Positions 6,126 to 43,785 of a stretch of DNA of 60,153 nt are shown here, in pieces. Source of the DNA: Microcoleus sp. Aus8_D1 (lineage in GTDB: Bacteria > Cyanobacteriota > Cyanobacteriia > Cyanobacteriales > Microcoleaceae); the NCBI RefSeq assembly GCF_036702645.1, contig NZ_JAUBUO010000016.1, forward strand, positions 92,186 through 152,338. Direction: 5' to 3'. Made by a program: the position numbers and the translations under genes. The notes under the pieces were generated by a model. That model had not been told where the DNA came from, did not search any database, and worked only from the letters and a program-made list of their open reading frames with translations. Within the stretch, counting starts at the first letter, position 1. The number at the start of each line of letters is the position of its first letter.

Positions 6126-6162
6126 TTCAAACACTGAACGGTATTCGAGCATAATACATAGG

Positions 6163-6226: not shown

Positions 6227-6328
6227 AATAACGCTCGATCGACCTGAAATAATCAGTTACAAAATCAGTTGCCGAACTTCCTTCTGCTATATAACCAATC
6301 CTAAATTTTATTTATCTCCACCTATTTT

Positions 6329-8992: not shown

Positions 8993-9013
8993 ATAGTTAT
9001 GTTGGAAGCATCT

Positions 9014-9250
9014 CAAGCTCTGTAGGGTGTGGATCCATTGACAATTCTCAAGAAAAAAGCGACCATCTAATAGCGACGCACCTCTTTTTTTCAAGCTCTG
9101 TAGGGTGTGGATCCATTGACAATTCTCAAGAAAAAAGCGACCATCTAATAGCGACGCACCTCTTTTTTTCAAGCTCTGTAGGGTGTGGATCCATTGACAA
9201 TTCTCAAGAAAAAAGCGACCATCTAATAGCGACGCACCTGTTCTTTTCAA
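9014..9250. repeat. Tandem array of three 78-bp direct repeats, each ending in a T-run
   Basis: caagctctgtagggtgtggatccattgacaattctcaagaaaaaagcgaccatctaatagcgacgcacctcttttttt occurs at 9014, 9092 and 9170. ORFs 8959..9300 and 8972..9274 are artefacts of this array. Confidence 0.9.
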
Positions 9251-19883: not shown

Positions 19884-20694
19884 TAGTAAAGCCAGCAAAG
19901 AATTATGGGATAGCTGGTGGGAAACAGGTGAGCTACCAGAACCAATGAACCCCCACCATCCTCATTTCAGAAATTATCGGGAACTTCGTCTACATCGATA
20001 TTTTTCTGAGATTTTTTCCAAGTTGGATGCAAAGGAGATGCGATTACTTGAAATCGGCTGTGCTAGATCTGATAAGCTTCCATATTTTGCTAAAGAATTT
20101 GATTTTCAAGTTTTTGGTCTAGACTATTCTGAATTAGGGTGTCAACAGGCAGAAAAAATACTGCAAAAAGCTGAAATAAAAGGAAAAATTGTTTGTTCTG
20201 ACTTTTTCAATCCAGCAGAAAATCTATTGGAAAGCTTTGATGTAGTGATTTCCTTTGGTGTTGCTGAACACTTTCCAGATACCGTTGGCTGTATTACAGC
20301 CTTTTCCAGATTTCTCAAGCCTAATGGGATTTTGATTACTCTGATTCCTAACCAGACAGGAAGTATTGGATTTTTCCAGAAAATTTTGGACAGGCAGACG
20401 TATGACATACACGTTCTCTTAGATCAGCATCTACTTCAGCTTGTACATGAAGATGCTGGTTTAAAGGTTAACAAATGCGGTTACTTTATGAGTACGCATT
20501 TTGGGGTGCTAAATTTAAGCCATCTTAATCCACAACATTCAACAACTAAAATAAAGGCTTTTGTGATGAATAGTCTCAGTCGGATTTCTAAATTGGTTTG
20601 GGCTATAGAATACTATACAGCGCCTCTCCCAGAAACTAAGATATTTGCACCATACATTATTTCTGTGGCACAGAAAATAGTTTTGAATCATTAA
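19876..20694 (+). CDS. Class I SAM-dependent methyltransferase
   Basis: LLEIGCARSD motif I and FGVAEHF. GGAGG RBS. Overlaps the upstream gene by 8 nt. Confidence 0.75.
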   Translation: MTNSKASKELWDSWWETGELPEPMNPHHPHFRNYRELRLHRYFSEIFSKLDAKEMRLLEIGCARSDKLPYFAKEFDFQVFGLDYSELGCQQAEKILQKAEIKGKIVCSDFFNPAENLLESFDVVISFGVAEHFPDTVGCITAFSRFLKPNGILITLIPNQTGSIGFFQKILDRQTYDIHVLLDQHLLQLVHEDAGLKVNKCGYFMSTHFGVLNLSHLNPQHSTTKIKAFVMNSLSRISKLVWAIEYYTAPLPETKIFAPYIISVAQKIVLNH

Positions 20695-22991: not shown

Positions 22992-24335
22992 ATGCTAGAT
23001 TCTGCTTACTTGGTTTTGCTATTTATTATACCATTAATTGAAATATTTAGAAGGAAAGAAAATCCCATAGATTTTCTAACCATGTTTAATTGTGCTTTTA
23101 TAATGTGGTATGTTTTACCTGCTTTTCTAATAGCTTTTGACCCTGAAAATACAGTCACAGGTTCGTGGATAAATATTATTGGTTATACAAACAAAATACA
23201 AACTGCTTTAGCAATATTTGTCGGATATTTTTTTGTACTAATTGGCTTTTATTCAAAGTCAGCTAAAAAGTTTGGACAACGTATAGTGGTAAACGCTCGT
23301 AACAATTTGATGATTTTGGGATATGCCATTTTTTTGCTTCTATTTTCTGCTATGTCAGTTCAGATATATAGTTCAGCTTTTGGTGGAGTTGTCAATGCAA
23401 TCACACAGTCAATAGCCGTTAGATCTGGTACAGAACAGGCCGGTTCACTAGGATTTTTCATCAGATTTCTAGGAGCAGCAAGCTTCTCATCTTATTTATT
23501 ATGTGCTTTTGTATTTACGAAGGATATCAAGACCAAGACAGGAAAATTGTTGATAATTCTATCATTTGCTTTCTCACTAGTCGTAACAGTTTCTTCTTTT
23601 TTGGTGAGGGCTGGGCGCTTTGACGTTCTCTACTACTTTCTTGGATTTTACCAAATTTATATACTTAAAACCAGAAAAATACCCTGGTTGTTTAGTGTTA
23701 TTTTGGTTGTTTTAATGGTGTTATTCTTATTTTATGGTAAAAATCTTTTCTCTAGCTTAGCGGCTATTCCAGACGGTATTGATGCTGTTATTGATAGATT
23801 TAACAAATCTGCTGAGGGTAGCACAGATGGTGAAGGATTTAGTTTATACAAGTTTATGGACAACTTTTTTTTTACCGTTTTTTCGCTGGACACAGCTTTT
23901 GGTGCAGACTATGAAATACGCTGGTTCGTAGATTTGATCTATGGGTTTCTTTCTTTAGTCCCAGATCGTTTACTAGGTACGGAATCACCGGAAACAATAT
24001 TAGCTTATAACACCAGGTATATTACAGGAGCATTTGATTATTCGATACCAACAGGCTTTCTTGCTTTTGGTATATATAGTCTGTGGTGGCCAGGACTGAT
24101 TATAGTTTGTTTAACTTATGGGTGGTTAGGTGGGTACTTACAATCTGTGATGGAAAAGCATATCCAAGATGTATTTTGGATGCCGTCTTTTTATACAGCA
24201 GTAGCTCAAATATGGGCAATCATGCAAACAGCCGATCCAGAAACATTTTTGCAATCTCAATTCATATTATTAGTATCAAGTACGTTATTGATATTGGTAG
24301 GAACTAAAATATCTATTCTGCGACAGAAAAGTTAA
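22992..24335 (+). CDS. Wzy-like polysaccharide polymerase / O-antigen-ligase-like polytopic membrane protein
   Basis: About 10-12 predicted TM helices with a large loop. Sits among GT genes in the cluster. Confidence 0.55.
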   Translation: MLDSAYLVLLFIIPLIEIFRRKENPIDFLTMFNCAFIMWYVLPAFLIAFDPENTVTGSWINIIGYTNKIQTALAIFVGYFFVLIGFYSKSAKKFGQRIVVNARNNLMILGYAIFLLLFSAMSVQIYSSAFGGVVNAITQSIAVRSGTEQAGSLGFFIRFLGAASFSSYLLCAFVFTKDIKTKTGKLLIILSFAFSLVVTVSSFLVRAGRFDVLYYFLGFYQIYILKTRKIPWLFSVILVVLMVLFLFYGKNLFSSLAAIPDGIDAVIDRFNKSAEGSTDGEGFSLYKFMDNFFFTVFSLDTAFGADYEIRWFVDLIYGFLSLVPDRLLGTESPETILAYNTRYITGAFDYSIPTGFLAFGIYSLWWPGLIIVCLTYGWLGGYLQSVMEKHIQDVFWMPSFYTAVAQIWAIMQTADPETFLQSQFILLVSSTLLILVGTKISILRQKS

Positions 24336-25890: not shown

Positions 25891-27840
25891 ATGTGTGGAA
25901 TAACTGGTTTGTTTGATGCCGTTCAGCAAATGTCTGCTCAAGAAATGGGGTCTGTAGCTGAAAAGATGTCGGATAGCCTCGAACATCGGGGACCAGACGA
26001 TCGTGGCATTTGGGTAGATGCCCAGAAAGGTATTGCTTTGGGACATCGACGCCTCGCTATTATTGATATCTCGCCGGAAGGACACCAACCGATGGTATGT
26101 GCGGACGGTCGTTATGCGATCGCGTTTAATGGCGAGATTTATAACTTTTTAGAGTTAAGAGGCGAACTTGAGCGGTTAGGTCACCGCTTCCGGGGTCATT
26201 CTGATACTGAGGTAATGCTGGCTAGCTTTAGCGAGTGGGGGCTAGATCGGGCAATTCGGCGTTTCAACGGAATGTTTGCCTTTGCCTTGTGGGACTGTCA
26301 AGAGGGGGTTCTGCATTTGGGGCGCGATCGCTTAGGAGAAAAACCCCTTTATTACGGCTGGGTGGATCAAACTTTTTTGTTTGGCTCTGAACTAAAAGCT
26401 CTGAAAGCTTATCCTCATTTTCAGGCGGAAATCAACCGAGATGCTTTGACATTGTTTCTTCGGTATAGCTACATTCCTGCGCCCTATTCAATCTACCAAG
26501 GCATCTACAAGTTACCTCCCGGAACAATCCTCACTTGTAAAAGTGCAGGTACTCATCAGGAGCCAGTACCTTATTGGTCTATCAAGGAAGTGGCGACATT
26601 CGGTGTTGCCAATCCTTTCACAGGTTCGGAATCGGAAGCAGTGGCAGAGTTAGATGCGCTCCTGTGGAATGCAGTGGGGCTTCGAGTAGTTGCAGATGTA
26701 CCTTTAGGCGCTTTCCTTTCAGGAGGGATTGACTCCTCCACAGTGGTAGCTTTGATGCAGGCTCAAAGTAGTCAACCAGTGAAAACTTTTAGTATCGGTT
26801 TTGATGAGGATGCCTACAATGAAGCCAAGTATGCCAAGGCTGTAGCACAGCACCTGGGTACAGACCACACAGAACTTTATCTGACTCCAGAAGAGGTGCT
26901 GGGAGTCATCCCGAAGTTGCCAAGTTTATATGATGAACCCTTTTCCGATGTCTCTCAAGTACCTACCTTTCTGGTATCACAGTTAGCTAGACAGCAGGTA
27001 ACAGTAAGTCTTTCAGGCGATGGTGGCGATGAAATCTTTGCTGGGTACGAACGCTATTTTTTGGCTAACAGCATTAGGCAGAAGATAGACTGGATACCCT
27101 CAGGACTGAGATCGATGGTCGCGCATAGCTTGACTAGCTTATCTCCTCAAACTTGGGATCGAATTCTGCCTAACTTTAGTGCTTTACTGCCACTGAACCT
27201 TAGAAACTCTGTCTCAGGTGATAGATTGCACAAACTCGCTGAAATTGTGGCAGATGCCAATTACAAAGCTATGTACAGAAATTTTGTTTCTCACTGGAAA
27301 GACCCAGCAGAATTAATTATTGGTGGCTCAGAGCCACTGACAGCTATGAACGATCGCTTTGACAGAGCTGATTTCCCAAATTTCATAGAATGGATGATGT
27401 ATCTCGATACCGCCACCTTTTTACCGGACGATATCCTTGTCAAGGTAGACCGAGCTAGCATGGGTGTGAGTTTGGAAGTTCGCGTACCGCTATTAGACCA
27501 TCGGTTGGTGGAATTAGCTTGGCGAATGCCACTATCTATGAAAGTCCGTCATGGTCAAAGCAAATGGTTGTTGCGTCAGGTATTATACAAATACGTGCCT
27601 AGAAACTTGGTAGAGCGGCCAAAAATGGGATTTGGTGTTCCGATTGATAGCTGGTTGCGCGGTTCTTTGCGGGATTGGGCAGAAGCGTTGCTAGATGAAA
27701 AACGGTTGCGCAGAGAAGGGTTTTTTAATCCACAGCCAATTCGCCAAAAGTGGGCAGAACACCTGGCGGGCGATCGCGATTGGAAATACTGTTTATGGAA
27801 TGTGTTGATGTTCCAAGCTTGGTTAGAGGAAAATTATTAA
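25891..27840 (+). CDS. asnB: Asparagine synthase (glutamine-hydrolysing), WbpS-like amidotransferase
   Basis: MCGITG N-terminal nucleophile, HRGPDD, SGGIDSS PP-loop. Confidence 0.9.
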   Translation: MCGITGLFDAVQQMSAQEMGSVAEKMSDSLEHRGPDDRGIWVDAQKGIALGHRRLAIIDISPEGHQPMVCADGRYAIAFNGEIYNFLELRGELERLGHRFRGHSDTEVMLASFSEWGLDRAIRRFNGMFAFALWDCQEGVLHLGRDRLGEKPLYYGWVDQTFLFGSELKALKAYPHFQAEINRDALTLFLRYSYIPAPYSIYQGIYKLPPGTILTCKSAGTHQEPVPYWSIKEVATFGVANPFTGSESEAVAELDALLWNAVGLRVVADVPLGAFLSGGIDSSTVVALMQAQSSQPVKTFSIGFDEDAYNEAKYAKAVAQHLGTDHTELYLTPEEVLGVIPKLPSLYDEPFSDVSQVPTFLVSQLARQQVTVSLSGDGGDEIFAGYERYFLANSIRQKIDWIPSGLRSMVAHSLTSLSPQTWDRILPNFSALLPLNLRNSVSGDRLHKLAEIVADANYKAMYRNFVSHWKDPAELIIGGSEPLTAMNDRFDRADFPNFIEWMMYLDTATFLPDDILVKVDRASMGVSLEVRVPLLDHRLVELAWRMPLSMKVRHGQSKWLLRQVLYKYVPRNLVERPKMGFGVPIDSWLRGSLRDWAEALLDEKRLRREGFFNPQPIRQKWAEHLAGDRDWKYCLWNVLMFQAWLEENY

Positions 27841-27856
27841 GTCACAAAGCCAACTT

Positions 27857-28999
27857 ATGAATAGCCTTTTGATTGTCACTACCATTCCAGCTACTCTCCA
27901 GGCATTTCTTCTCCCTTTTGCTCTTCACTTCCGCAAAAAAGGCTGGAAAGTAGATGCAATGGCTCAAGGAATTTCTGAGTCTGCTGAATGCTTGCAAGCA
28001 TTCGATCGCGTCTGGGATGTAAAGTGGTCTCGCAATCCTCTAGATCCCCGCAATTTAATTCTTGCTCCTCAAATAATTAGAGAGGTCGTCGCCCAGGAAG
28101 CATACGACATAATTCACGTACACACCCCTGTAGCAGCTTTCGTTACCCGGTATGCCCTCAAAGATTTGAAAAAGCAGGCAAAATTCAAAGTAATTTACAC
28201 GGCTCACGGCTTTCACTTTTATCGCGGCGGGAAACCTCTAAAAAATACCGTCTTTCTCAATTTAGAAAAATTGGCTGGAGCTTGGACTGATTACTTAGTA
28301 GTAATTAATCGCGAAGATGAAGAGGCTGCAAAGCGCTATGGTATCCTGCCATCAGAACGAGTCCGCTATATGCCGGGAATTGGCGTAGATATCGATTATT
28401 ACAGTCCCGATGCTATTTCTGAAACTGATGTTAAACAAGTACGTCAGGAAATGGGAATCACCCAAGAAAATCCTCTATTCCTGTCAGTAGCCGAATTTAT
28501 TCCCCGCAAGCATCATCGGGATGTGATCCTAGCGTTTGCTAAGTTAGAGCGATCGCAAGTCCATTTAGCCTTGGCCGGCGACGGCCCGCTGATGTCAGAA
28601 ATGCGGCAATTAGCATCTGATCTAAAAGTAGAAAAACGGGTGCATTTTCTAGGGGAACGCCGGGATATTCCCACTTTGAGCCGTGCCTCAGCAGCTACGC
28701 TGCTGGCTTCTGAACAAGAAGGACTTCCCAGATGTGTAATGGAGTCTTTTTGCCTCGAAATTCCGGTCATCGGAACAGACATTCGGGGTATCCAGGATTT
28801 GCTGGAGGGAGACTGTGGCTTTTTGATTAAGGTAGGAGATGTGGAAAAACTTGCTGAAGCAATGGCTTGGATATTAGATCACCCAGAAGATGCCTTGGCG
28901 ATGGGCAAGCGTGGGCGATCGCGCATGGCTACACATGATTTGCAGAACATTATCAAACTGCATGAAACTTTGTATAACGAGGCGATGCACTTATCATAA
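27857..28999 (+). CDS. Glycosyltransferase family 4
   Basis: C-terminal EGLPRCVMESFCLEIPVIGTD. Its C-terminal ~30 aa (MGKRGRSRMATHDLQNIIKLHETLYNEA) recur as fragments at 30390-30497 and 32835-32950. Confidence 0.8.
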   Translation: MNSLLIVTTIPATLQAFLLPFALHFRKKGWKVDAMAQGISESAECLQAFDRVWDVKWSRNPLDPRNLILAPQIIREVVAQEAYDIIHVHTPVAAFVTRYALKDLKKQAKFKVIYTAHGFHFYRGGKPLKNTVFLNLEKLAGAWTDYLVVINREDEEAAKRYGILPSERVRYMPGIGVDIDYYSPDAISETDVKQVRQEMGITQENPLFLSVAEFIPRKHHRDVILAFAKLERSQVHLALAGDGPLMSEMRQLASDLKVEKRVHFLGERRDIPTLSRASAATLLASEQEGLPRCVMESFCLEIPVIGTDIRGIQDLLEGDCGFLIKVGDVEKLAEAMAWILDHPEDALAMGKRGRSRMATHDLQNIIKLHETLYNEAMHLS

Positions 29000-29149
29000 A
29001 TTCTGCAAAATTATGATGAGCGGTTAGTCTTCCAGCGACCAGCAGAATTTTATCGGGAATTAGGCGTATCCTATCTTGAAATTGCTGACTTATGAGTACA
29101 GAGATGAAGCCCATAGTTAGGTCAAGGAAGTTTTTTCCAAGTTTATGTT

Positions 29150-29986
29150 TTATTTGATAGTGGCACAAAAAATGTTGGGTATTAAATATTTTGCAACAAC
29201 TCTTATGTATTGCCTTGGGAATAAACCTAGCACTTTTTCACAGACTTCAAAATAGAAATTAGGCATTCTGAATTTTATGCTTTTTGCGCACCAATATGAA
29301 TCAAGTTTTGAATACCCTAACTGGCTCAGGATTTGATGTAGTTCGGCATAAGTCCACTCTTTCAAATGAAAGCATTCTGGCTCATCGGAAAAATAGGCAG
29401 ATACATCATGCGGACCTCTGAATGCGTGTGGTGTTATAAATATGTACTTGCCACCTTTTTTGAGAATACGATATGCTAATTGAAAATGAAGCTGAGTTTC
29501 TTCGGGATGAAAGTGTTCGATTATTTGATCGCTAAACAAGATGTCAATGGAATTTTCTTCGATCCCTTCAAGAGAGTAACCATCATATATAATTAATTTG
29601 AAATTATCAGGCGCATTGTGGTTTGGGTTGCGCTGATCTGAAATATCTATGCCATATGCACAGTTAACATATTTGGCAACTTCCATAGCAAATCGGCAGT
29701 CCCCAGGACCAAATTCTGCGAAGACAGTTGATTGATCTATAAGCCCACTGAGGGTAGCCAATTTGTTCTTATTTGCTATTAGAGTAAGTTGTTCATTGTC
29801 TCTTCTAGTCAATCTTGGGTGATCTGGTACTTTACCAAATAATTCATCATACATCGTGGCATAGATAAGTTTTCGGTCTTCAAGACTAGATACCTTGATT
29901 CTGTCGGCAATGGCTTTCTCCACCAAATAGTGATTTTGAATTTGTTCAAAACTCCGATTAGGAGGTAATGTTTTTTTTAATTTCAT
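29150..29986 (-). CDS. Class I SAM-dependent methyltransferase
   Basis: FAEFGPGDCRFAMEV motif I and ILFSDQIIEHF. Confidence 0.7.
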   Translation of the reverse strand: MKLKKTLPPNRSFEQIQNHYLVEKAIADRIKVSSLEDRKLIYATMYDELFGKVPDHPRLTRRDNEQLTLIANKNKLATLSGLIDQSTVFAEFGPGDCRFAMEVAKYVNCAYGIDISDQRNPNHNAPDNFKLIIYDGYSLEGIEENSIDILFSDQIIEHFHPEETQLHFQLAYRILKKGGKYIFITPHAFRGPHDVSAYFSDEPECFHLKEWTYAELHQILSQLGYSKLDSYWCAKSIKFRMPNFYFEVCEKVLGLFPRQYIRVVAKYLIPNIFCATIK

Positions 29987-30607
29987 GGTAGTTTTTTTGT
30001 AAACTTATACTCTTGATTGTTTGCACCTAATCTTAACACGTCCGTGAAATTGTCGGAGCGAGAATTCGTTACTCATTACCAAAATTTAATAATTCTTAAT
30101 ATTTTTGACTTGCGTAAATAATTTGATACAAAAAATAACTATTTTTGACATAAATCAACTTAGCTTGTGCAATGATTTACTCATTTGCCTCTATAATGGT
30201 AATTGTTTGTGGGTATCGCCATTTGTTTTTTTTACTGCAATACTTAGATATATAGCGGTTCTCACCAACATGAGGTGTACCAGATTCTATGAATTTCAGG
30301 ATTTTCGAGCATTTGTCTGTACCTCACCTACCTGAGAAAGGCTATAGTGGCGATCTCGATTTACATCCATTTACATATGTATCGTCCTGAAGATGCTTCC
30401 ATCATGGCAAAGCGCGGACGAGAAGGAATGACGGAGTATGGATTGCCACAGATCCTGAAAGTATATGAAGCTCTTTATACTGAAGCTCTATCGGTGTAAA
30501 TTATGCAGTCTTTTATTAAATTAAGAAACTTAGATATTAGAAATGACCAATGATTCAATAGCGATTCAACCGAACATGAAATTACTTATTATTTAGGAGT
30601 GCATAAA

Positions 30608-31681
30608 ATGCAAATTCAAGTAATTGGTTTATCAGACTCTTTGTGGTTAGAGACTCTGCAAAAAATTCGCCACGATATCTATCATTTGCCTGAATATCTA
30701 TATTTGGAGTCGATTCGGAACAACGCCCTAGCAGAAGCTATTGTGATAGCTGAAGATGACAAAATCTTTTTTATACCTTATTTTTTGCGTCCGTGCTATG
30801 ATATATTTGACCAAAGCTTGGCAACACAAGATGTTTTTGATGTTGTCTCCCCTTATGGTTATCCAGGAATTCTGTTGAGTGAGAAGGCAGCTAGTACAAA
30901 AGATTTTTTAGAGTTGGCAATGAATCAGCTAATCTCTGTATTGCGTGCCAAGGGAGTCTGTTCGGCATTTTTTCGGCTGCATCCGATACTTAACAGCGGA
31001 TTTAAGGAAATTTTATCGCCCGATATTTGCAAATTAAATGGAGAAACTGTATCTGTGAATTTGAAACTCTCCGAAGCGGAAATATGGAGTCAAACTAGAT
31101 CGGAACACCGCACGAGTATTAATAAGTTAAAGCGCTCTGAGATGACAGCAAAAATCGTTCCATTTCAGGACTATATCAGCGAGTTTATTTCGATTTACCA
31201 TGAAACAATGGATCGGGTAGAGGCTGGGCGATCGTACTATTTTGATGATGAATATTTTTCACATTTCTCTAAACTAGGTGAAAAAGTTCACTTGTGTATA
31301 GTATAATTAGAGGATAAAGTTACTTGTTCAGGGATATTTACCGAGTGTTGTGGAATAATTCAATATCACTTGGGAGGAACCAGAAGCGAGTTTTTTAAAC
31401 AAGCACCTAGCAAACTGATGTTTGATTATATTCGATTCTGGGCTAAAGAACGCGGCAATCAACTTTTTCATCTAGGGGGAGGTTTAGGAGGTTTCCAGGA
31501 CAGTCTCTACCATTTCAAGGCAGGTTTTTCCAAGCAAAGACATACTTTTTTGACGCTGCGGATAATTACAGAGCGAACTAAATATCTCGAACTGATTGAA
31601 CTGCGTGCAAGATTTTTGAACACAGAAGCAGATAAACTGCTAGTTACGGATTTTTTTCCGGTCTATCGTTCTCTTTATTGA
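30608..31681 (+). pseudogene. FemAB/CelD-like GNAT acyltransferase, interrupted by an in-frame TAA at 31306-31308; paralogue of 33999..35063
   Basis: ORFs 30599..31306 and 31370..31681 are colinear and in frame with the intact paralogue. The single nonsense codon falls where the paralogue has Glu (HLCIV*LEDKVTCSG vs HLCMVELNGEITCGG). Confidence 0.65.
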
Positions 31682-31691
31682 TGGTAAGTTT

Positions 31692-32450
31692 ATGAGTGAC
31701 AACAAGGAAGTTTACAGCACTGTAGCATTTGAGGAGTGGGCTTATAAAAAACGTTTACTCACTCAGGAAAAATTTTTGCTCGAAAACTATTTAGATAAAA
31801 GAGCAAAAACTTTAGAAGCTGGAACCGCAGGAGGAAGAATTTTGTTAGAGATGAAAAAAATTGGTTTTACATCTCTTTACGGTTATGACTACGTGCCAGA
31901 ATTCATTGAGCAGGCAAGACAGAAAGATTCGAGCGGCAGTATTTATTTTGAGGTGGAGGATGCAACTAGATTAAATTACAAAGATAATGATTTCGATCAG
32001 ATCATTTATTTACAGCAAATAATTTCTTCTATTGATGATGCCGAAGCCAGGTTAAAAGCCCTGAAGGAGGCTTATCGAATTCTCAAAAATGAGGGAACGG
32101 CTTTATTTTCGTTTCTAAGTTTTGATGCCAGAAAGAGCAGTGTTATGTATTCGTTGTTCTTGATGTATTTGGGTATGTTTAGGAATTTGCGGGGATCGAA
32201 TCGGACAATTCAGTATCTGCCTTGGCTTAAGCATGGTGGGAAAGTAAACTTGTCGGCGCTTGTCGATCGGGAACCTTATGTCTATTGGTACAAGGTTGAA
32301 GAGGTTTACCAGCTTTTAAGAGAAGTCAATTTTGAAGTGGTTGCTATTGGTTCTGATTTTCAGATTAAACAAGGCAAAATGCACCAGTCAATTGAAACAT
32401 TAGTCAAAGAACCGATTGCAGGGATGCTTTACTTTGTGTGCAAAAAGTAA
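31692..32450 (+). CDS. Class I SAM-dependent methyltransferase (paralogue of 35077..35838)
   Basis: LEAGTAGGRILLEMKKIGF motif I; ~60% identical to the downstream paralogue. Confidence 0.7.
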   Translation: MSDNKEVYSTVAFEEWAYKKRLLTQEKFLLENYLDKRAKTLEAGTAGGRILLEMKKIGFTSLYGYDYVPEFIEQARQKDSSGSIYFEVEDATRLNYKDNDFDQIIYLQQIISSIDDAEARLKALKEAYRILKNEGTALFSFLSFDARKSSVMYSLFLMYLGMFRNLRGSNRTIQYLPWLKHGGKVNLSALVDREPYVYWYKVEEVYQLLREVNFEVVAIGSDFQIKQGKMHQSIETLVKEPIAGMLYFVCKK

Positions 32451-32914
32451 ATTTTAGTTAATTAAGACTTTCGCACACCAAACATAGGCAAAAAATAGTT
32501 TAAGGTGGTATTAACTTGAGTTAAAGTATCAGGAATTACGCAGATACGCTATATACAACATATTCGATGTATATGTGATGCACAATCTTTTGGATCTACC
32601 TATGTAGCGGGTTTGCCAATAGTTGCTACTGTACTTCATAAACCTGGGATATGCTGTATATAGTGTTTTGTAGGGTAATCCGTGCGCGAGCGCCCCTATC
32701 CGTCAATGGAAAATAATGGTTTCAGACTACGAAATAAAAACTGTCCGAACTATTGATAAAGTGATATTCATAGTGTAGCAAAAGAAGGAGTAGTAACAAC
32801 AGAGATTTTAGACCATCCAGAGGAAGCTCAACATATGGGCAAGCGCGGACGAGAAAATATGGTTAATTATGACCTACCACATATCCTCAAGCAATACGAG
32901 GCTTTGTATGCTGA

Positions 32915-32948
32915 AGTCAACAATCAACAATCAACAATCAACAATCAA
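32915..32948. repeat. Heptanucleotide STR (CAATCAA)x4.5 ending 3 bp before the epimerase start
   Basis: gtcaacaatcaacaatcaacaatcaacaatcaaccc. Confidence 0.8.
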
Positions 32949-32951
32949 CCC

Positions 32952-33899
32952 ATGAGTAATATTGTTACAGGCGCGGCAGGTTTTATCGGCTCTAACTTAG
33001 TCGAAACTCTTTTAAACCAAGGTGAACAAGTAATCGGTGTTGATGAAGTCAACGATTACTACAATCCCGAATTGAAGAGAAAAAATCTCGCTCATTTTGA
33101 AAAAAATCCGAATTTTCAACTAATTGAGGGCAATATCTTATCTTTGGATTGGAAACCGCTATTAGCAAATGCAGAAGTCATTTACCACCAAGCAGCCCAA
33201 GCAGGAGTCCGTGCTAGTTGGGGAGACGGTTTCCGCAGCTATACGGAACGCAATATCAATGCAACTCAGGTACTCCTAGAAGCCGCAAAAGATGCACCGC
33301 AACTGAAAAAGTTTGTATTGGCTTCGTCTTCGTCGGTGTACGGCAATGCTGAAACTTTTCCTACTTCCGAAACTGCCTGCCCTCAACCAGTTTCTCCCTA
33401 CGGGATTACCAAATTAGCCGCTGAACGTTTGGCTTCGCTTTATCATCACAATTTTGGCGTTCCCGCAACCATGCTGCGGTATTTCACTGTTTACGGGCCT
33501 CGCCAGCGTCCCGATATGGCATTTCACATATTTTTTAAGTCAATTTTGCGCGGCGAAGCGATTTCAATTTACGGAGACGGACAGCAAACGCGAGATTTTA
33601 CATTTATCAGCGATTGCGTTGCCGCTAATTTAGCTGCCGCTAAAGTGCCGGAAGCTGTCGGGGAAATATTTAATATTGGAGGGGGAAGTCGAGTTGCTTT
33701 GGCGGAAGTTATTCAGACTATGGAAAGCATTGTCGATCGCCCGATTCGCATCAATTACCTAGAATCGAGCAAAGGAGATGCGCGAGATACTAGCGCTGAC
33801 GTATCGAAAGCTCAGAAAATCTTGGGATATCAGGCACAGGTTTCTTTGAGGGAAGGGTTGAAGCAAGAATGGGAATGGGTGCAGTCTTTGTACGGCTAG
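32952..33899 (+). CDS. NAD-dependent nucleotide-sugar epimerase/dehydratase (extended SDR)
   Basis: MSNIVTGAAGFIGSNL Rossmann motif and YGITK catalytic YxxxK. The ORF-track extension back to 32835 is a fossil of a GT4 C-terminus. Confidence 0.85.
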   Translation: MSNIVTGAAGFIGSNLVETLLNQGEQVIGVDEVNDYYNPELKRKNLAHFEKNPNFQLIEGNILSLDWKPLLANAEVIYHQAAQAGVRASWGDGFRSYTERNINATQVLLEAAKDAPQLKKFVLASSSSVYGNAETFPTSETACPQPVSPYGITKLAAERLASLYHHNFGVPATMLRYFTVYGPRQRPDMAFHIFFKSILRGEAISIYGDGQQTRDFTFISDCVAANLAAAKVPEAVGEIFNIGGGSRVALAEVIQTMESIVDRPIRINYLESSKGDARDTSADVSKAQKILGYQAQVSLREGLKQEWEWVQSLYG

Positions 33900-33998
33900 A
33901 AGGTGCTGAACCTACTCATCTGCTGAAGTGCTAAGTCAGCAGATGAGGTTATATGCACAGTAAATCTTCGCGAATAATCAACTTAAAATTATCAAGCC

Positions 33999-35063
33999 AT
34001 GAAAATCCAATTTATTGATTTAAGCAGTCCTTTGTGGCTAGAAACTCTGGATAATCTCAGACATGATTTTTATCATTTACCTGGCTATGTGGATTTAGAA
34101 GCAAAAAGAACCGAAGCAACCGCAGAAGCTATTTTGATTGCTGATGATGACAAAATATTCTTTTTGCCTTATTTATTGCGAAAGTGCAATAATTTATTTG
34201 CAGAGACAGTAGAAGTTTTTGATGTTATATCGCCCTATGGCTATCCGGGATTTTTGTTAAATGAAGCCGCAGCTAGCACTCCTGATTTTTTTATCTTGGC
34301 AATCGAAAATTTAACACAGGCCTGGCGCGATCGCAATATTTGTTCGGCTTTTTTACGGCTGCATCCTATTCTCAACAAGGATGTTAATACTTCGATAAAC
34401 AATGACTTGTTTACACTCAATGGAGAAACAGTTTCTGTAGATTTAACACTCGAACGAAGTGAAATATGGAGTCAAACTCGCTCTGAACATCGCAATAAAA
34501 TAAATAGATGCGTCCGCGAAGGTTTTTCGGCTAAAATGGTTCCTATTCAGGAATATATTAATGATTTCAACGCGATTTATGAGGAAACAATGGCTCGGGT
34601 TGGGGCTGCAAAGTTATATTATTTCGGAACTAATTATCTGGTAAAACTCATCGATGTATTAGGAGATAAATTGCATTTATGTATGGTAGAATTGAATGGA
34701 GAAATTACCTGTGGTGGTTTGTTTACTGAGTGCTGCGGCATCGTTCAGTATCATCTGGGTGGTACGAAGTCAAGCTTTTTGAAACAAGCACCCACTAAAC
34801 TAATGTTTGATTATGTTCGATTCTGGGCTAAGGAACGCGGTAATCAAGTTTTCCATCTAGGCGGTGGTTTAGGAGGTTCGCAAGATAGTCTCTACCATTT
34901 CAAAGCAGGTTTCTCTAAGCAAAGACACACTTTTTTCACCCGACGCTTAATTACAGATGAAGAAAAATATCTTCATTTAGTTAACCTACGTGCAAAATAT
35001 CTGAAGATCGAGGTGGAGCATCTACTGAATACCAATTTTTTCCCTGCATATCGCTCTAACTGA
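33999..35063 (+). CDS. FemAB/CelD-like GNAT acyltransferase, intact copy
   Basis: Conserved YHLGGTKSSFLKQAPTKLMFDYVRFWAKERGNQVFHLGGGLGGSQDSLYHFKAGFSKQ block typical of the FemAB-like Acetyltransf_6 family. Confidence 0.7.
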   Translation: MKIQFIDLSSPLWLETLDNLRHDFYHLPGYVDLEAKRTEATAEAILIADDDKIFFLPYLLRKCNNLFAETVEVFDVISPYGYPGFLLNEAAASTPDFFILAIENLTQAWRDRNICSAFLRLHPILNKDVNTSINNDLFTLNGETVSVDLTLERSEIWSQTRSEHRNKINRCVREGFSAKMVPIQEYINDFNAIYEETMARVGAAKLYYFGTNYLVKLIDVLGDKLHLCMVELNGEITCGGLFTECCGIVQYHLGGTKSSFLKQAPTKLMFDYVRFWAKERGNQVFHLGGGLGGSQDSLYHFKAGFSKQRHTFFTRRLITDEEKYLHLVNLRAKYLKIEVEHLLNTNFFPAYRSN

Positions 35064-35076
35064 TTAGGAGAATTGT

Positions 35077-35838
35077 ATGATGGACAACAAGCAAGTTTAC
35101 AGCACAGTAGAATTTGAGAGTTGGGCAGACAAAGAACAATTGATTGAGGAAGAAAAGTATCTAATAGAAACTTATTTAGCTCGAACAGGAAAAATACTCG
35201 AAGCTGGAACAGCAGGAGGAAGAATTTTATTAGAAATGAAACAGATGGGTTTTACATCTCTTGCCGGTTATGATTACGTGCCAGAATTTATTGAGCAGGC
35301 AAAAAAAAGAGATGCGACGCAGAGTATTTCTTTTGAAGTTCAGGATGCAACTAGCTTAAACTACGAAGATGCTAGTTTCGATCAGATAATTTATCTTCAA
35401 CAAATTATTTGTTTGATCGAAAATGATTCAAGCAGATTAAAGGCGATGGAAGAGGCTTATCGTATCCTCAAAATGGGGGGGATTGCATTATTCTCATTCC
35501 TCAGCTTTGAAACGAGAGTTAGAAGTCCCATCTACAAGTCATATTTATCTTATCTCAGCCTGATACGGAAGCTTCGCGGCTCAAATCGTTCTCTTCAATA
35601 TATTCCTTGGCTGAAGCTTGGTGGAAAACCAAACTGGTTATGCCTTCTGGATCGAGGCCCTTATCCTTATTGGTATCAAGTTGCAGAGGCTGAACAGATT
35701 ATAAAAAAAGTTGGTTTTCATGTAGTTGCTGTGGGTTCTAGTTATCAGATCAAACAAGAAGGAAGAATGCCAGAATCAATTGAAACATTAGCGAATGAAC
35801 GCCTACAAGGAATGCTTTACTTTGTCTGTAAAAAATGA
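35077..35838 (+). CDS. Class I SAM-dependent methyltransferase
   Basis: LEAGTAGGRILLEMKQMGF motif I. Confidence 0.7.
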   Translation: MMDNKQVYSTVEFESWADKEQLIEEEKYLIETYLARTGKILEAGTAGGRILLEMKQMGFTSLAGYDYVPEFIEQAKKRDATQSISFEVQDATSLNYEDASFDQIIYLQQIICLIENDSSRLKAMEEAYRILKMGGIALFSFLSFETRVRSPIYKSYLSYLSLIRKLRGSNRSLQYIPWLKLGGKPNWLCLLDRGPYPYWYQVAEAEQIIKKVGFHVVAVGSSYQIKQEGRMPESIETLANERLQGMLYFVCKK

Positions 35839-35855
35839 ATGATGAGCAATGAACC

Positions 35856-36494
35856 ATGAATAATCACCGATCGCCAATCACCAAATTCAGCAGATTAGTT
35901 AAGTGGGTATTAGATAGATTAGTTGCCGCGATCGCCCTACTAATTTTCTCTCCCATCGTTTTAATAGTGGCGATCGCCATTTACATCCGCATGGGTTCTC
36001 CCGTTGTGTTCACACAACCGAGGCCAGGTAAAGATAGCCACGTCTTCAAGTTCTACAAATTTCGCACGATGACGAGCGATCGCGATCGCGAAGGAAACTT
36101 GCTCCCCGACGAACAACGCCTGACTGCGATCGGTCAATTCTTGCGAAAAACCAGTTTGGACGAACTTCCCCAACTGTGGAATGTTCTCAAAGGCGACATG
36201 AGCTTTGTTGGCCCTCGTCCCTTGTTAGTACGATACCTAGAACGCTACAGCCCAGAACAAGCACGCCGCCATGATGTGATGCCCGGAATCACCGGGTGGG
36301 CCCAGGTGAACGGTCGCCGACTTCTAGATGGTAATTGGCCGGAGAAATTTAGGCTCGATGTTTGGTATGTGGATAATTGGAACCTGTGGCTGGATTTGAA
36401 AATACTTTTCCTGACAGTAGGTCAAGTCTTGGGACAAAAAGAAATCAGCCAAGAAGGTCATCTTACAAGTGAAGAGTTTAAAGGTAATGAATGA
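35856..36494 (+). CDS. Undecaprenyl-phosphate sugar phosphotransferase (PglC/WbaP C-terminal type; priming sugar transferase)
   Basis: Single N-terminal TM; KFRTM, DELPQLWNVLKGDMSFVGPRP. Confidence 0.85.
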   Translation: MNNHRSPITKFSRLVKWVLDRLVAAIALLIFSPIVLIVAIAIYIRMGSPVVFTQPRPGKDSHVFKFYKFRTMTSDRDREGNLLPDEQRLTAIGQFLRKTSLDELPQLWNVLKGDMSFVGPRPLLVRYLERYSPEQARRHDVMPGITGWAQVNGRRLLDGNWPEKFRLDVWYVDNWNLWLDLKILFLTVGQVLGQKEISQEGHLTSEEFKGNE

Positions 36495-37638
36495 AGTCTC
36501 CCCAATGACCAAACAAATCCTCCTCTCAACGCCGCACATGGGCGAACTAGAACAAAAGTTTGTCCAAGAAGCCTTTGACACCAACTGGATCGCCCCCGTC
36601 GGCCCCCATGTCGATGCTTTCGAGCGGGAATTCTGCGATGTTGTCGGTTCCAGCCACGCCGCTGCTCTGAGTTCGGGCACTGCGGCTTTACATTTAGCTT
36701 TACAATTAATTGGTGTCAGTGCAGGCGATGAGGTTTTTTGCTCGACTCTGACGTTTATTGCTACGGCGAGTCCGATTACTTATTTAGGCGCCAAACCGGT
36801 TTTCATTGATAGCGATCGCACTACATGGAACATGAATCCAGAATTGTTGCGAGAAGCCCTGGACAAACGAGCCAAATTAGGAAAGTTGCCCAAAGCTGTG
36901 GCGATCGTACACCTCTACGGTCAAAGTGCCGATATTGACCCTATTTTAGCAGTTTGCAATGACTATGAAATACCCCTAATTGAAGATGCGGCCGAATCCC
37001 TAGGAGCTACTTACAAAAACCGTTCTCCGGGAACTTTTGGCAAAATCGGGATTTTCTCATTCAACGGTAATAAAATTATCACCACTTCCGGCGGCGGAAT
37101 GTTAGTTTCTGACGACCAAAAACTGGTAGAAAAAGCCCGTTTCTTGGCGACGCAAGCCCGCGATCCTGCTCCTCACTACCAACACACCGAAATCGGCTAT
37201 AACTACCGCCTCAGCAACGTTTTAGCGGGGATTGGGATTGGTCAATTGCGGGTTTTGGAGGATAGAGTTGAGGCGAGACGGCACAATTTTGAGGTTTACA
37301 AACAAGCTTTGGGAAATTTGCCGGGAATCGAATTTATGCCGGAAGCTGATTTCGGACGCGCTACTCGCTGGCTGACTTGTTTGACAATTAATCCTGCTGC
37401 TTTCGGTGCGGATAGAGAACTTGTTCGCCTCGCACTGGCGAAGGAGAAAATAGAAGCGCGTCCGGTTTGGAAACCTTTGCATTTGCAGCCAGTATTTGCT
37501 GAGTGTGAATCTATCGGAGGCGAAGTTGCTGAAGAGTTATTTGAACATGGTCTTTGCTTGCCTTCTGGCTCGAATTTAACTGAAGAAGATTTAGAACGAG
37601 TCACCAGTGCGATCGCAGAAATTCATCGAACAGCTTGA
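36487..37638 (+). CDS. DegT/DnrJ/EryC1/StrS-family PLP-dependent sugar aminotransferase
   Basis: Family-typical N-terminus and SFNGNKIITTSGGGML PLP-lysine region. Start uncertain: 36487 (8-nt overlap) or 36505. Confidence 0.85.
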   Translation: MNEVSPMTKQILLSTPHMGELEQKFVQEAFDTNWIAPVGPHVDAFEREFCDVVGSSHAAALSSGTAALHLALQLIGVSAGDEVFCSTLTFIATASPITYLGAKPVFIDSDRTTWNMNPELLREALDKRAKLGKLPKAVAIVHLYGQSADIDPILAVCNDYEIPLIEDAAESLGATYKNRSPGTFGKIGIFSFNGNKIITTSGGGMLVSDDQKLVEKARFLATQARDPAPHYQHTEIGYNYRLSNVLAGIGIGQLRVLEDRVEARRHNFEVYKQALGNLPGIEFMPEADFGRATRWLTCLTINPAAFGADRELVRLALAKEKIEARPVWKPLHLQPVFAECESIGGEVAEELFEHGLCLPSGSNLTEEDLERVTSAIAEIHRTA

Positions 37639-37667
37639 GGGATGAAAGGCGATTCAGCTCAACGAAA

Positions 37668-37700
37668 AAAAACCTGTTTCTTCAAGAAACCGGGTTTTGA
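37668..37700. terminator. Bidirectional hairpin between convergent genes
   Basis: aaaaaaaacctgtttcttcaagaaaccgggtttt has an imperfect ~11-bp stem flanked by A-run and T-run. Confidence 0.4.
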
Positions 37701-37725
37701 GATGGTCTCGAAGTTGGTCGCTGAA

Positions 37726-38412
37726 TTAGGCTGAAAGAATGCGATCGGTTTCCGGTACTCTATTTAAGTTTAAGCGATCGCGCACTTCTGCCAGCGGCGT
37801 TTCCCACAGCTTATTCCACTCAATTCCAAATAGCAGTTTAGCCTGTTTTCCCCGCAACCAACCTCGGCATAGCGCATCCATATAATCGCCGCTGGTTTCA
37901 ATGTCTTGTAATGTAGATTTTAACAAATTTTTAGCAAGGAGTGCCAGCCAAAAACGAGAAGCCGACATCTGCGCCACATAAAAAGCCTCTAACTCAATTT
38001 CTCCTGTTATATGGGTGCTGCAACCGGTGACGACGTGCCAACAGTCATGGGTTTCAGTAGTATGCACAGCCAAAAATGCCAAGTCATCATCAGGGATTTC
38101 TTTGGCTGACAAAACTTTGAGGTTATTGCTTAGCATATGAACTGCATAATGATAACCGAGCGTATTTTTCGGCAATTGGTGGAGTGCTTCCAAATCGACA
38201 TTTCCCAAACGCGGACGTTCTTTAAATGCCCGTTTTGCTTGAGGTTCCTGGGAAAGAATATCTATTATTAGCTGGAGGCTATAACCATCGCTCGCAGCTT
38301 TGAACAAGTGTCCGAGAGCCTCAAAGTCTCCGTCAGGAGATTTCACCATGTTAATAAAAGCTTCCAGAAGCTGCGCTTCCCGCTGCTGTTTTTCTGTGAC
38401 GATGTTCTCCAT
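37726..38412 (-). CDS. Coq4-family protein (HDxxH...E zinc motif)
   Basis: THDCWHVVTG...EIELEAF matches the Coq4 HDxxH-(x11)-E motif. Start placed at MENIV, preceded by AAGGAGGA; the ORF track extends to 38514. Confidence 0.5.
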   Translation of the reverse strand: MENIVTEKQQREAQLLEAFINMVKSPDGDFEALGHLFKAASDGYSLQLIIDILSQEPQAKRAFKERPRLGNVDLEALHQLPKNTLGYHYAVHMLSNNLKVLSAKEIPDDDLAFLAVHTTETHDCWHVVTGCSTHITGEIELEAFYVAQMSASRFWLALLAKNLLKSTLQDIETSGDYMDALCRGWLRGKQAKLLFGIEWNKLWETPLAEVRDRLNLNRVPETDRILSA

Positions 38413-39039
38413 TTGCTCATCCTCCTTTGCTAAAAATATTTCTGGTAACTGATGCAGTATTTTAGCACGCATTTTTATTTGATAACAATAGTCCGGACAG
38501 TTTGCGATCGCCAACGGTAGAATGAGGGTTTCAGTTTCATCAGAATCAGAAATATTAACGGTAGAATGCGGGTTTTAGCGGCTAATCTCAAAACAGTCCG
38601 GAGTATTGATTTGATAAGTGCCCGCCAAGTTACACCATTCTATTGTATATTGAGAAATTTTGAGATTTTTATCACTTCTAGCTAAGGACTTGACGGGAGC
38701 ATCTAATACCATGCGTGAAAAAATGTTGCAACAATAAAATTTTGGGGTTTGTTTCGTTCACCTAATGTGTAAGGTGCGGAGCTATTAGATTTTCACTCTT
38801 TTTTAGAGATTGTCGATGGCTCCACACCCTACATATACTGTTGCATTAATGCATGAAAATTGGTATAACTTGAGACTTGAGGATAGGGTTATACCAATTT
38901 AGATTTGAGATTAAAGAATGGATATTAAAGAATTGAATAATGGGGAATCACTTACTGCATAAGGGTTCGGAGCAGGAGCCTACAGTTGCATTATTTTTGG
39001 GGAAACTGGTATTAGATGCGATCGCCCGTCATGTTCTCA

Positions 39040-39300
39040 AAAAAGTACGCGCGGCGCAGCATCCCGTAGGGCATCGCCCTGTTATTGATTAGCCCTCGCA
39101 AAAGTACGCGCGGCCCAGCTATCCCCCAAGGCTGAATTGCCCAACCCACCCCGCCTCAACTCCCCAGACTATTCTACCAAATCGGCGATCGAGAACTTCA
39201 GTAAGTCACACAGCGCCTTCATCTGTGCTGGGTAAAGCTTGGGTAGGTGTCTGTCTTCGAGTCGATCGCCGTGGACTGCACAACATTATACGCTTCTACT
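39040..39300 (-). pseudogene. Degraded second copy of the cassette end: duplicated terminus plus XRE regulator remnant
   Basis: ~85% nucleotide identity to 10258..10465 in the same orientation. Terminus aaaagtacgcgcggc occurs twice. An internal indel destroys the HTH reading frame. Confidence 0.6.
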
Positions 39301-39781
39301 TTGGTCGATCTAAACTAGATCAACATTTTCATCCATGAGATATTTGAGCATTGTTCGCCAAATTGACTTCTCTTTCTGCCTTTAACTGCATCAGAATGTG
39401 GGTGGGTGGCGGCGCGGTTAAGATTTATCTATTTGTTACCCCATTCCATCGCCTCACCCAACTCACGCTACAATAGGTTCTGTTGGCTAACTATATTTTT
39501 TTAAAATAAAAATATATTATATATTCACTTTGAAGATCGTGTCAAGAGTATTGTTGGAAAAATATCGAAGTCTCCGTAAAATTAACGAGCTTAGCTCCAG
39601 TGTCGATCGCACTCAGGTGAATATATTTTAAAATGCTAAGTTAATTAAAGATTGTATGAAGGTTGCGGATAAGTCTTTACATTGTCGCTCTAAATTTTGT
39701 TATTGTATTAGCAAGTTTGATTCGATCGACTGAATTATTGTACCACAGTCTTGCACTCTAAACAGAACGGCAGTTTCCCCC

Positions 39782-40720
39782 ATGAGAATTTTAGTCACAG
39801 GCGGTGCGGGTTTCATCGGTTCCCATCTGATCGATCGCTTAATGGCCCAAGGACACGAGGTAGTCTGCCTGGATAACTTTTACACCGGGACTAAGCGCAA
39901 TATCCTCAAATGGCTGGACAACCCCTATTTTGAGCTGATCCGCCACGACATCACGGAACCCATTCGGTTAGAGGTAGATCAGATTTACCATCTGGCTTGT
40001 CCGGCTTCGCCAGTACACTATCAGTTCAACCCCGTCAAGACAATCAAAACGAATGTCATCGGGACACTAAATATGCTGGGATTGGCGAAACGGGTAAAAG
40101 CAAGATTTTTTCTGGCTTCCACATCAGAAGTTTACGGCGATCCGGATGTCCATCCCCAAACAGAAGACTATCGCGGCAACGTTAATTGTATCGGTATTCG
40201 GAGCTGTTACGACGAGGGGAAGCGAGTAGCTGAAACCCTATCTTTTGACTACCACCGCCAAAATGGGGTAGACATTCGAGTTGTACGAATTTTTAATACC
40301 TACGGCCCGCGAATGTTAGAAAATGATGGCCGAGTTGTCAGCAATTTTATTGTTCAAGCTTTGCGCAATCAACCGCTGACTGTGTATGGCGATGGTTCCC
40401 AAACACGGAGTTTTTGCTACGTTTCTGATTTGGTGGAAGGATTTATGCGCTTGATGAATAGCGACGAAATCGGGCCGATGAATTTGGGGAATCCCGGCGA
40501 ATACACTATCTTGGAACTGGCCCAGAAAATTCAAAACATGATTAATCCTGGGGCGGAAATCATCTTCAAACCGCTGCCACAAGACGATCCAAAACAGCGA
40601 CAACCGGATATTACTCGTGCTAAAAGTTGGTTGGGGTGGGAGCCAACTATTCCGCTGGATCAAGGTTTAGAGTTGACTGTGAAAGATTTTCGCGATCGTA
40701 TCGAGGGAAACCAAAAGTAG
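39782..40720 (+). CDS. uxs: UDP-glucuronate decarboxylase (UDP-xylose synthase, extended SDR)
   Basis: [20 protein letters not shown]...[10 protein letters not shown]...[14 protein letters not shown]...[11 protein letters not shown] is strongly UXS-like. Confidence 0.9.
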
Positions 40721-43423: not shown

Positions 43424-43745
43424 AGGGTGTGTCGCCTGCGAAGAATCCCTAACTAAATATCGAAAATCTCAAAGCTCCGCACCTGTCAACTCGCCCGATC
43501 GCCAATAAAGTCGATCGCCTACAATCAAGTATTCGGGTGTGTCGCCACAAAAAATCCTTAGCCAAACATGAAAAATCTCAAAGCGACGCACCTGTGAACT
43601 CGCCCGATCGCCAATAAAGTCGATCGCCTACAATCAAGTATTCGGGTGTGTCGCCACAGAAAATCCTTAGCCAAACATCGAAAATCTCAAAGCGACGCAC
43701 CTGTCAACTCGCCCGATCGCCACTAAAGTCGATCGCCTACAATCA
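43424..43745. repeat. Tandem array of ~3 copies of a 109-bp unit immediately upstream of the NACHT gene
   Basis: acctgt(c/g)aactcgcccgatcgccaataaagtcgatcgcctacaatcaag... recurs at 43481, 43590 and 43699. ORF 43320..43508 and the 43648 start extension are repeat artefacts. Confidence 0.85.
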
Positions 43746-43785
43746 AACTAACCCGCTTCGAGCAGCGCATCAGGAGAACCGTCAA

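Follow-up and report, generated by a model that had tools for sequence, protein, structure and literature searches.

The window analyzed here is a 60,153-nucleotide (nt) stretch of a contig from the cyanobacterium Microcoleus sp. Aus8_D1, and the region under study (29150-35838) forms the 3' portion of a surface-polysaccharide locus of the Wzx/Wzy type, which a Pfam scan of the open reading frames (ORFs) of at least 120 amino acids (aa) placed at 11-38 kb. The region carries two successive modules, each made up of a Fem-like gene followed by a class I methyltransferase gene, with the Fem-like gene of the upstream module interrupted by a nonsense codon. We find that it is a recombination mosaic, marked by two relics of GT4 glycosyltransferase genes, a truncated spacer and a breakpoint inside the interrupted gene. 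Its features are listed below, where A and B denote clades of the Fem-like genes, L048 is a metagenome contig and PGT stands for a small polyprenyl-phosphate glycosyl-phosphotransferase.

30383-30499, plus strand: relic 1, a GT4 3' end of ~39 codons, the gene body being absent (translation PEDASIMAKRGREGMTEYGLPQILKVYEALYTEALSV, which aligns with GT4 C-termini)
30608-31681, plus strand: clade-A Fem-like gene with one nonsense codon (FemA*), recognized by comparison with homologues
31304-31306, plus strand: in-frame TAA, a G-to-T change in a conserved GAA (Glu) codon, from the homologue codons and the deposited product
31400-31480, no strand: recombination breakpoint inside the interrupted gene, from sliding-window identity and steps in synonymous divergence (dS)
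31692-32450, plus strand: class I methyltransferase MT_A, number 3 of 4, an intact ORF (Pfam)
32451-32755, plus strand: truncated clade-A spacer, which in single-module genomes lies between methyltransferase and PGT genes (matches L048:3714-4018)
32756-32803, no strand: illegitimate junction between two units (L048 spacer homology ends at ~32755, GT4 3' end homology runs from 32804)
32804-32951, plus strand: relic 2, a GT4 3' end of ~45 codons, abutting the epimerase start (nt and tblastx identity)
33999-35063, plus strand: intact clade-B Fem-like gene, FemB (Pfam FemAB, 28.8 bits against a cut-off of 24; Acetyltransf_6)
35077-35838, plus strand: class I methyltransferase MT_B, number 4 of 4 (Pfam)

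The ORFs of the two modules lie where the initial annotation of this DNA had placed them, at 30608-32450 and 33999-35838, and the paralogy that it gave as ~60-70% aa identity was borne out, with 62% over 356 aa for the Fem-like pair, 64% over 253 aa for the methyltransferase pair and 73-76% DNA identity between the modules. The identities of the products as FemAB-like proteins and class I methyltransferases likewise agreed with Pfam, which found FemAB and Acetyltransf_6 in the intact copy and class I domains in both neighbours. As a positional description, the tandem duplication of the initial annotation stands as well; as a recent history, it is contradicted by phylogeny and dS. Synonymous sites are saturated when the window copies are compared, the Fem-like genes having a dS of 1.24 and the methyltransferase genes one of 1.01, and a neighbour-joining tree showed that the Fem-like copies are not each other's closest relatives, falling instead into separate clades: 1) clade A holds the interrupted gene along with L048, Pol10D4, N3A4, N9_A2, C2D2 and S13_C5; 2) clade B holds FemB, P0002 and ARI1; 3) clade C holds the second Fem-like copies of some genomes. 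Fem-like proteins from other genomes of Microcoleus share 83% identity with the interrupted copy, vs. 62% for its neighbour. A scan of genome contigs gave 83% as its best match and did not bring up the species of the window itself. FemB, which is 87% aa identical to its counterpart in L047 (a Microcoleus ARI1-type genome) and 100% identical to an NCBI entry labelled 'MULTISPECIES ... unclassified Microcoleus', is probably the working copy; the adjoining MT_B is 92.5% aa identical to its own L047 counterpart.

The initial annotation had proposed a comparison with orthologous clusters and, when this was run, a single Fem-like gene was found in the slot in related genomes, with a single class I methyltransferase gene behind it; in several of these genomes, GT4 and epimerase genes immediately precede the slot. 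L047, L048 and the metagenome locus L052 each have a single module, of either A or B type (B in L052), upstream of the PGT and aminotransferase genes, and A and B were found together in none of the related loci compared. The alleles of the slot form two old clades or more, A and B among them, and both of these are present in the window: the stretch with module A and its spacer (30556-32755) aligns with L048 over 2201 nt at 91.8% nt identity, and the stretch from module B through Coq4 further downstream (33999-38485) matches L047 at 91.9%. The flanks tell a different story from the slot, since the epimerase gene (32952-33899) and the DegT aminotransferase gene are 98-99% nt identical to L048, a contig with a clade-A slot, and the content between them is L047-like clade B.

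The upstream module is itself composite. The 5' ~850 nt of the interrupted gene most resemble alleles of the Pol10D4/L049/L051 type (87-95%), with the 3' ~220 nt being of the L048 type; past the breakpoint, identity to L048 climbs to 96-100% and that to L004-type alleles drops to about 70%. From about 31450 on, the remainder of the gene, MT_A and the spacer are 96-100% identical to L048, and dS falls stepwise from 0.49 in the N-terminal part of the Fem-like gene to 0.17 in its C-terminal part and 0.04 in MT_A, with the MT_A gene being 98.9% nt identical to the L048 methyltransferase gene at a ratio of non-synonymous to synonymous divergence (dN/dS) of 0.08. The clade-A spacer breaks off after about 300 nt, its identity decaying at about 32720-32780. 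As for the two GT4 relics, relic 1, just upstream of the interrupted gene, shares 51-64% tblastx identity with the GT4 ends in L002, L003, L004, L047 and L048 and is the older one; relic 2 has a sharp left boundary, with window 32804-32953 being 92-93% nt identical to the GT4 3' end and epimerase start in L047 and L048 and tblastx giving 91-94% aa identity to the L047 GT4 end. We place the true epimerase start at the ATG at 32952 rather than at 32835, because the protein database contains the exact 315-aa product and no 354-aa version; reading from 32835 gives a long ORF in which a GT4 relic is joined in frame to the epimerase. Relic 2 ends, just before this ATG, in a TCAACAA repeat of 4.7 units (32917-32949), of which L047 and L048 have one unit fewer. 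In genomes with an intact GT4 gene, the GT4 stop overlaps the start of the epimerase and would move with a change of one unit, making the repeat a possible slippage site. No insertion sequence element was seen at the junctions. Because the interrupted Fem-like gene is chimeric, the epimerase gene is missing upstream and the two GT4 relics differ, at least two recombination events must have taken place; a one-step origin of the tandem state, also considered, is ruled out by the same three features.

Relics of this kind are seen beyond the window. In other cyanobacterial loci, fragments of PGT (Bac_transf) or DegT genes lie beside the Fem-like gene (L002, 2612-2935; L004, 9497-9845; L005, 946-1270; L009, 7285-9327; L047, 7307-7516 and 9408-9695), which shows that this junction, where the variable and conserved parts of the locus meet, is a general scar zone that gathers recombination relics in many genomes. 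In L047, ATP-grasp and HAD-hydrolase genes (7529-9207) sit between the epimerase and the Fem-like gene with the two PGT fragments on either side, and this insert is another cassette at the same junction.

The two modules could also descend from an ancient tandem duplication in place, kept only in this lineage and lost elsewhere, in which the copies became sub-functionalised, e.g. for two different amino acids, before one of them was recently lost. The join of spacer to GT4 tail at 32756-32803 is the trace that a segmental tandem duplication should leave, and two intact Fem-like genes do occur in N3A4, N9_A2, S13_C5 and a Nostocales metagenome-assembled genome (MAG). These second copies, however, belong to clade C and have no adjacent methyltransferase gene, and the pairing of A with B recurs in no genome compared. 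Nor does a duplication in place sit well with L048-like flanks around L047-like slot content, or with an A module that lacks its epimerase, follows a separate, older GT4 relic and contains an internal breakpoint. We therefore regard this history as unlikely.

The lesion in the upstream Fem-like gene is what the initial annotation had described, a single in-frame TAA (31304-31306) within a frame that is otherwise open to the same end as in the homologues, and the paralogue has GAA at the equivalent position (34689-34691). GAA occupies this codon in 8 of 8 clade-A homologues, in 3 metagenome alleles and in the paralogue (12 sequences), which makes the lesion a single G-to-T change; a metagenome scan of the site recovered GAA alleles only, at 86-88% identity. 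NCBI lists the exact 232-aa product that ends at the TAA four times as a 'hypothetical protein', from four contigs of Microcoleus assemblies and with the accessions MEG4320533.1, MEG4356904.1, MEG4544110.1 and MEG4637376.1, and the neighbouring genes all show the same fourfold deposition pattern. This 'hypothetical protein' is the N-terminal fragment of a Fem-like pseudogene (30608-31303). Truncation removes residues 233-357, the catalytic motif included; as judged from the alignment, the product lacks the C-terminal GNAT domain that bears the catalytic Tyr and Phe-Lys and, with these residues beyond codon 233, cannot be functional.

The stop is young. Against L048, the interrupted gene has a dN/dS of 0.25, in line with pairs of intact genes (0.21-0.26); polarised changes number 23 synonymous and 22 non-synonymous on its own branch vs. 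34 and 41 on the L048 branch, and its branch is not longer in the neighbour-joining tree. It keeps 74 of the 75 family-invariant residues, the exception being G178E (codon 178, window 31139-31141) at a position where all of 32 family members have Gly, possibly a second damaging change. No relaxation of selection was seen in the polarised counts or in pairwise dN/dS. Given the unchanged dN/dS, the branch of ordinary length and the 74 retained residues, we conclude that the stop is recent relative to all measurable divergence and that the gene is a recent true pseudogene, as the initial annotation had suspected when it proposed that one copy was recently inactivated: the nonsense codon is genuine and nearly the sole lesion, and dN/dS is not raised.

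A TAA that is read through or bypassed, or a gene translated as two separate halves, would leave the upstream module functional, and the fully open frame past the TAA, the kept catalytic residues, the dN/dS without relaxation and the intact, conserved MT_A downstream are all compatible with this. A very recent mutation accounts for the absent relaxation equally well, however, and nothing points to the programmed readthrough that the initial annotation had raised: TAA is the ordinary and commonest stop, ending 16 of the 27 window genes; no tRNA gene was found in the window, and 27000-39800 has no Rfam match; translation could restart at the earliest from a TTG 21 codons past the stop, and the protein collection lacks a 103-aa product with this start; the homologues listed for the intact copy (351-380 aa) and the nine clade-A genes compared (356-359 aa) are all single full-length proteins. 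We thus consider continued function of the upstream module to be very improbable. The weakest alternative is a sequencing or assembly error in an intact gene, also raised at first; a difference of only one base from the conserved GAA codon would fit such an error, but it is scarcely credible because the identical 232-aa truncated protein was deposited from four separate assemblies.

The remainder of the locus bears on what the Fem-like and methyltransferase pair may do. In order, the locus comprises a Wzc-like tyrosine kinase, a PglF/CapD-type dehydratase-EAL fusion, a DUF4874/DUF4832 protein, a MurJ/MatE-type flippase and a methyltransferase; then two GT4 enzymes, a 447-aa protein (22992-24335) without a Pfam or NCBIfam match, another GT4, an AsnB-type amidotransferase and the GT4 at 27857-28999; and finally the Fem-like/methyltransferase region, the small PGT and the DegT aminotransferase. 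The individual features are:

14048-16855, plus strand: PglF/CapD-type UDP-sugar 4,6-dehydratase with a C-terminal EAL domain (Pfam Polysacc_synt_2, 5.5e-117; EAL, 8.2e-61)
19876-20694, plus strand: class I S-adenosylmethionine (SAM) methyltransferase, number 1 of 4 (Pfam Methyltransf_31/11/23; weak generic NCBIfam matches)
27857-28999, plus strand: intact GT4 glycosyltransferase (Pfam Glycos_transf_1, 5e-30)
29150-29986, minus strand: class I SAM methyltransferase, number 2 of 4 (Pfam Methyltransf_11, 5.2e-9)
32952-33899, plus strand: NAD-dependent sugar epimerase/dehydratase (Pfam)
35856-36494, plus strand: small PGT (Bac_transf, PglC-size; Pfam, 1.6e-66; NCBIfam EPS_sugtrans)
36505-37638, plus strand: DegT-family sugar aminotransferase, LegC/PglE-like (Pfam, 8.6e-101)

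The dehydratase-EAL gene is the conserved 5' anchor of the locus: the fusion is found also in L001, L006 and the metagenome locus L052, Microcoleus Pol10D4 and N9_A2 being among the genomes that keep it, and recurs at 47% identity in a Pseudanabaena MAG. The EAL portion is a domain of the cyclic di-GMP phosphodiesterase type, and its fusion to the dehydratase suggests cyclic di-GMP control over the first step of the amino-sugar pathway. The GT4 at 27857-28999 is 74.5% identical to a GT4 of Microcoleus S13_C5, and the DegT gene reaches 400 bits with the NCBIfam LegC family against a cut-off of 420. The locus is flanked by STAND/NACHT NTPase genes and a gene of the phage-integrase family (4667-8992, 43648-47607 and 47751-49202). 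A scan for promoters and terminators returned fewer sites than in shuffled sequence.

As to the function of the Fem-like protein, an AlphaFold2 model of FemB (predicted local distance difference test, pLDDT, 91.6) shows two tandem GNAT domains, with FemX as the top Foldseek match in the PDB (E 1e-14; template modelling score, TM, 0.70-0.74). The best fold matches are all aminoacyl-tRNA-dependent, namely FemX, Sba18/Sbb17 with the amino-sugar compound streptothrisamine, FemA and MprF. A single-sequence search of FemB against PDB sequences gave nothing, but the profile and fold searches gave matches; the family profile, a hidden Markov model (HMM), matches FemX at E 2e-7, and in the HMM alignment Y254, F304 and K305 of FemX fall on Y251, F301 and K302, of which the last two are invariant and the first nearly invariant in 32 family members. 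Lys305 of FemX is a catalytic residue, and aminoacylation of streptothrisamine is Gly-tRNA-dependent (PMC12945691). The Pfam match of FemB, PF02388, covers residues 152-233 only.

Because the Fem-like gene sits with the trio of PglF-like, DegT and PGT genes, we surmise, from the modelled fold and this neighbourhood, that the enzyme probably adds an aminoacyl and not an acyl group to a 4-amino sugar; the acyltransferase label of the initial annotation fits less well, since the protein most resembles the aminoacyl-tRNA-dependent Fem transferases, making aminoacylation the likelier activity. The same gene context argues for a nucleotide amino sugar as acceptor and not a peptidoglycan precursor. 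Distant Fem-like homologues in Firmicutes, Chloroflexi and Saccharibacteria are accompanied by this trio of PglF-like, DegT and PGT genes in about half of the loci compared, and no PglD-type hexapeptide acetyltransferase or LbH domain was detected among ORFs of at least 120 aa at 11-38 kb. A second intact Fem-like gene, of clade C (53-57% identity) and with no adjacent methyltransferase gene, lies in L003 (13971-15035), L006 (13845-14909), L011 (7753-8823) and L009 (14583-15650), a hint that several residues may be added one after another, in the way of FemX/A/B. The literature on Fem-like genes in cyanobacterial polysaccharides, on ExoG of the Myxococcus spore coat and on aminoacyl-bacillosamine offered no usable precedent, and a search on O-methyl sugars in Microcoleus brought up reviews only.

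Turning to the methyltransferases, the initial annotation had counted six of class I, and the Pfam scan of all ORFs of at least 120 aa gave four in the window, the surplus having arisen because the two paralogues were counted twice. The methyltransferase at 19876-20694 is unrelated to those of the modules, and the one at 29150-29986 has no counterpart in the related loci compared. The nearest sequences and folds of the module methyltransferases are uncharacterised enzymes among N-, O- and C-methyltransferases; the MT_B model (pLDDT 91.3) has generic fold matches, including phosphoethanolamine N-methyltransferases, the C-methyltransferase TleD and the sugar O-methyltransferases RebM and AtmM, at TM of 0.5-0.65. 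On such sequence and modelled fold matches, O-, N- and C-methylation are not separable. With the methyltransferases miscounted, the predicted heavily O-methylated and acylated polymer loses its support, as there are four of them, one in a redundant module. In sum, what the initial annotation had read off the sequence (ORFs, identities, the TAA/GAA difference and domains) holds apart from the number of methyltransferases and the history of duplication; of its interpretation, the recent inactivation survives, and the duplication history, the six methyltransferases and the heavily O-methylated and acylated polymer do not.

Taking these data together, we consider it quite likely that recombination displaced the A module and installed a working clade-B module, with the clade-A Fem-like gene becoming a nonsense pseudogene. 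Under this scenario, recombination between divergent variants of the locus would have left A and B alleles in tandem, with the clade-B module taking the working slot and the clade-A module being displaced upstream. The displaced module is a chimera of two A alleles, bounded by the two GT4 relics and the truncated spacer, and its Fem-like gene would have gained the G-to-T stop once it had become redundant, or just before it was replaced. The functional part of this reading is more conjectural. A PglF-like dehydratase and the DegT aminotransferase would make a UDP-4-amino-4,6-dideoxy-N-acetylhexosamine, the Fem-like enzyme would move an amino acid from aminoacyl-tRNA to its 4-amino group, and the adjacent methyltransferase would then methylate that substituent or the sugar.

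Several points weigh against this scenario or limit it. The order and number of recombination events are not uniquely reconstructable, and a duplication of the GT4tail-epimerase-Fem-MT-spacer unit followed by allelic replacement would produce the same junction. The four assemblies with the TAA share identical proteins across the whole locus and may be near-clonal isolates, so that they show one fixed mutation and not four independent ones. Low-level readthrough, or some use for the fragments of the interrupted gene, may also exist. On the functional side, the donor (aminoacyl-tRNA vs. acyl-CoA), the amino acid, the acceptor and the target of the methyltransferase are all inferred, and the NCBIfam FemX and pepcterm_femAB equivalogs give 33 bits against cut-offs of 500 and 260.

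The interrupted Fem-like gene is thus an ordinary pseudogene, the debris of a gene swap in a mosaic polysaccharide locus and of a known kind. In itself it carries little weight, since recombination junctions in variable polysaccharide loci are expected to leave such debris; what the region does offer is a clear picture, and one that can be dated, of how cassettes are exchanged in the surface-polysaccharide locus of Microcoleus, a major builder of soil crusts. The more interesting lead is the uncharacterised and widespread Fem-like and methyltransferase pair. Searches returned more than 3000 Fem-like homologues. The pairing is common in cyanobacteria, with the methyltransferase gene directly 3' of the Fem-like gene in most cyanobacterial loci examined, and the pair may put tRNA-derived amino acids on cyanobacterial polysaccharides. 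We would go further only tentatively, toward the speculative proposal that the pair is an uncharacterised aminoacyl-tRNA system that places a methylated amino acid on the 4-amino group of the initiating exopolysaccharide sugar, with clade-specific amino acids and serotype-like switching. If true, the A, B and C clades would specify different amino acids, and recombinational swapping of clades, as caught in this window, would alter surface chemistry in the manner of a serotype switch.

Among known systems, the FemABX enzymes (Weissella viridescens FemX; Staphylococcus aureus FemX and FemA) share the double-GNAT fold with the Fem-like protein, which matches them at the profile level over the C-terminal domain and keeps the equivalents of Tyr254, Phe304 and Lys305. 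In contrast, identity to them is only 15-17%, the S. aureus-type coiled-coil insertion is not present in the Fem-like protein, and its gene lies in a Wzx/Wzy locus with a dehydratase, an aminotransferase and a PGT, whereas the context of FemABX is peptidoglycan. Sba18/Sbb17 (Orf11 of the BD-12 pathway), which have the same fold as FemB and rank 5, 6 and 10 in the fold search, provide a precedent for a Fem-like enzyme that forms an amide on an amino sugar (PMC12945691). They differ in belonging to an actinomycete antibiotic pathway, in sharing about 15% identity and in using a substrate that is not a nucleotide sugar, the Fem-like gene here being part of a polysaccharide locus.

The bacillosamine-type pathway consists of the PglF dehydratase, the PglE aminotransferase, the PglD acetyltransferase and the PglC phosphoglycosyltransferase. 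The window locus matches three of these, with a dehydratase like PglF, an aminotransferase of the DegT family and a small PGT, but in place of an enzyme of the PglD type it has the Fem-like gene beside the PGT and aminotransferase genes, and its dehydratase, unlike the PglF of the bacillosamine-type pathway, carries an EAL domain. Lastly, O-antigen and capsule loci that depend on Wzx/Wzy are mosaic, with cassette replacement and gene relics. The window locus resembles them in its conserved flanks and variable middle, in the allelic modules that alternate in one slot and in the relics and pseudogene at its junctions; it differs in belonging to a filamentous cyanobacterium and in having a conserved 3' block that holds the Fem-like and methyltransferase pair.

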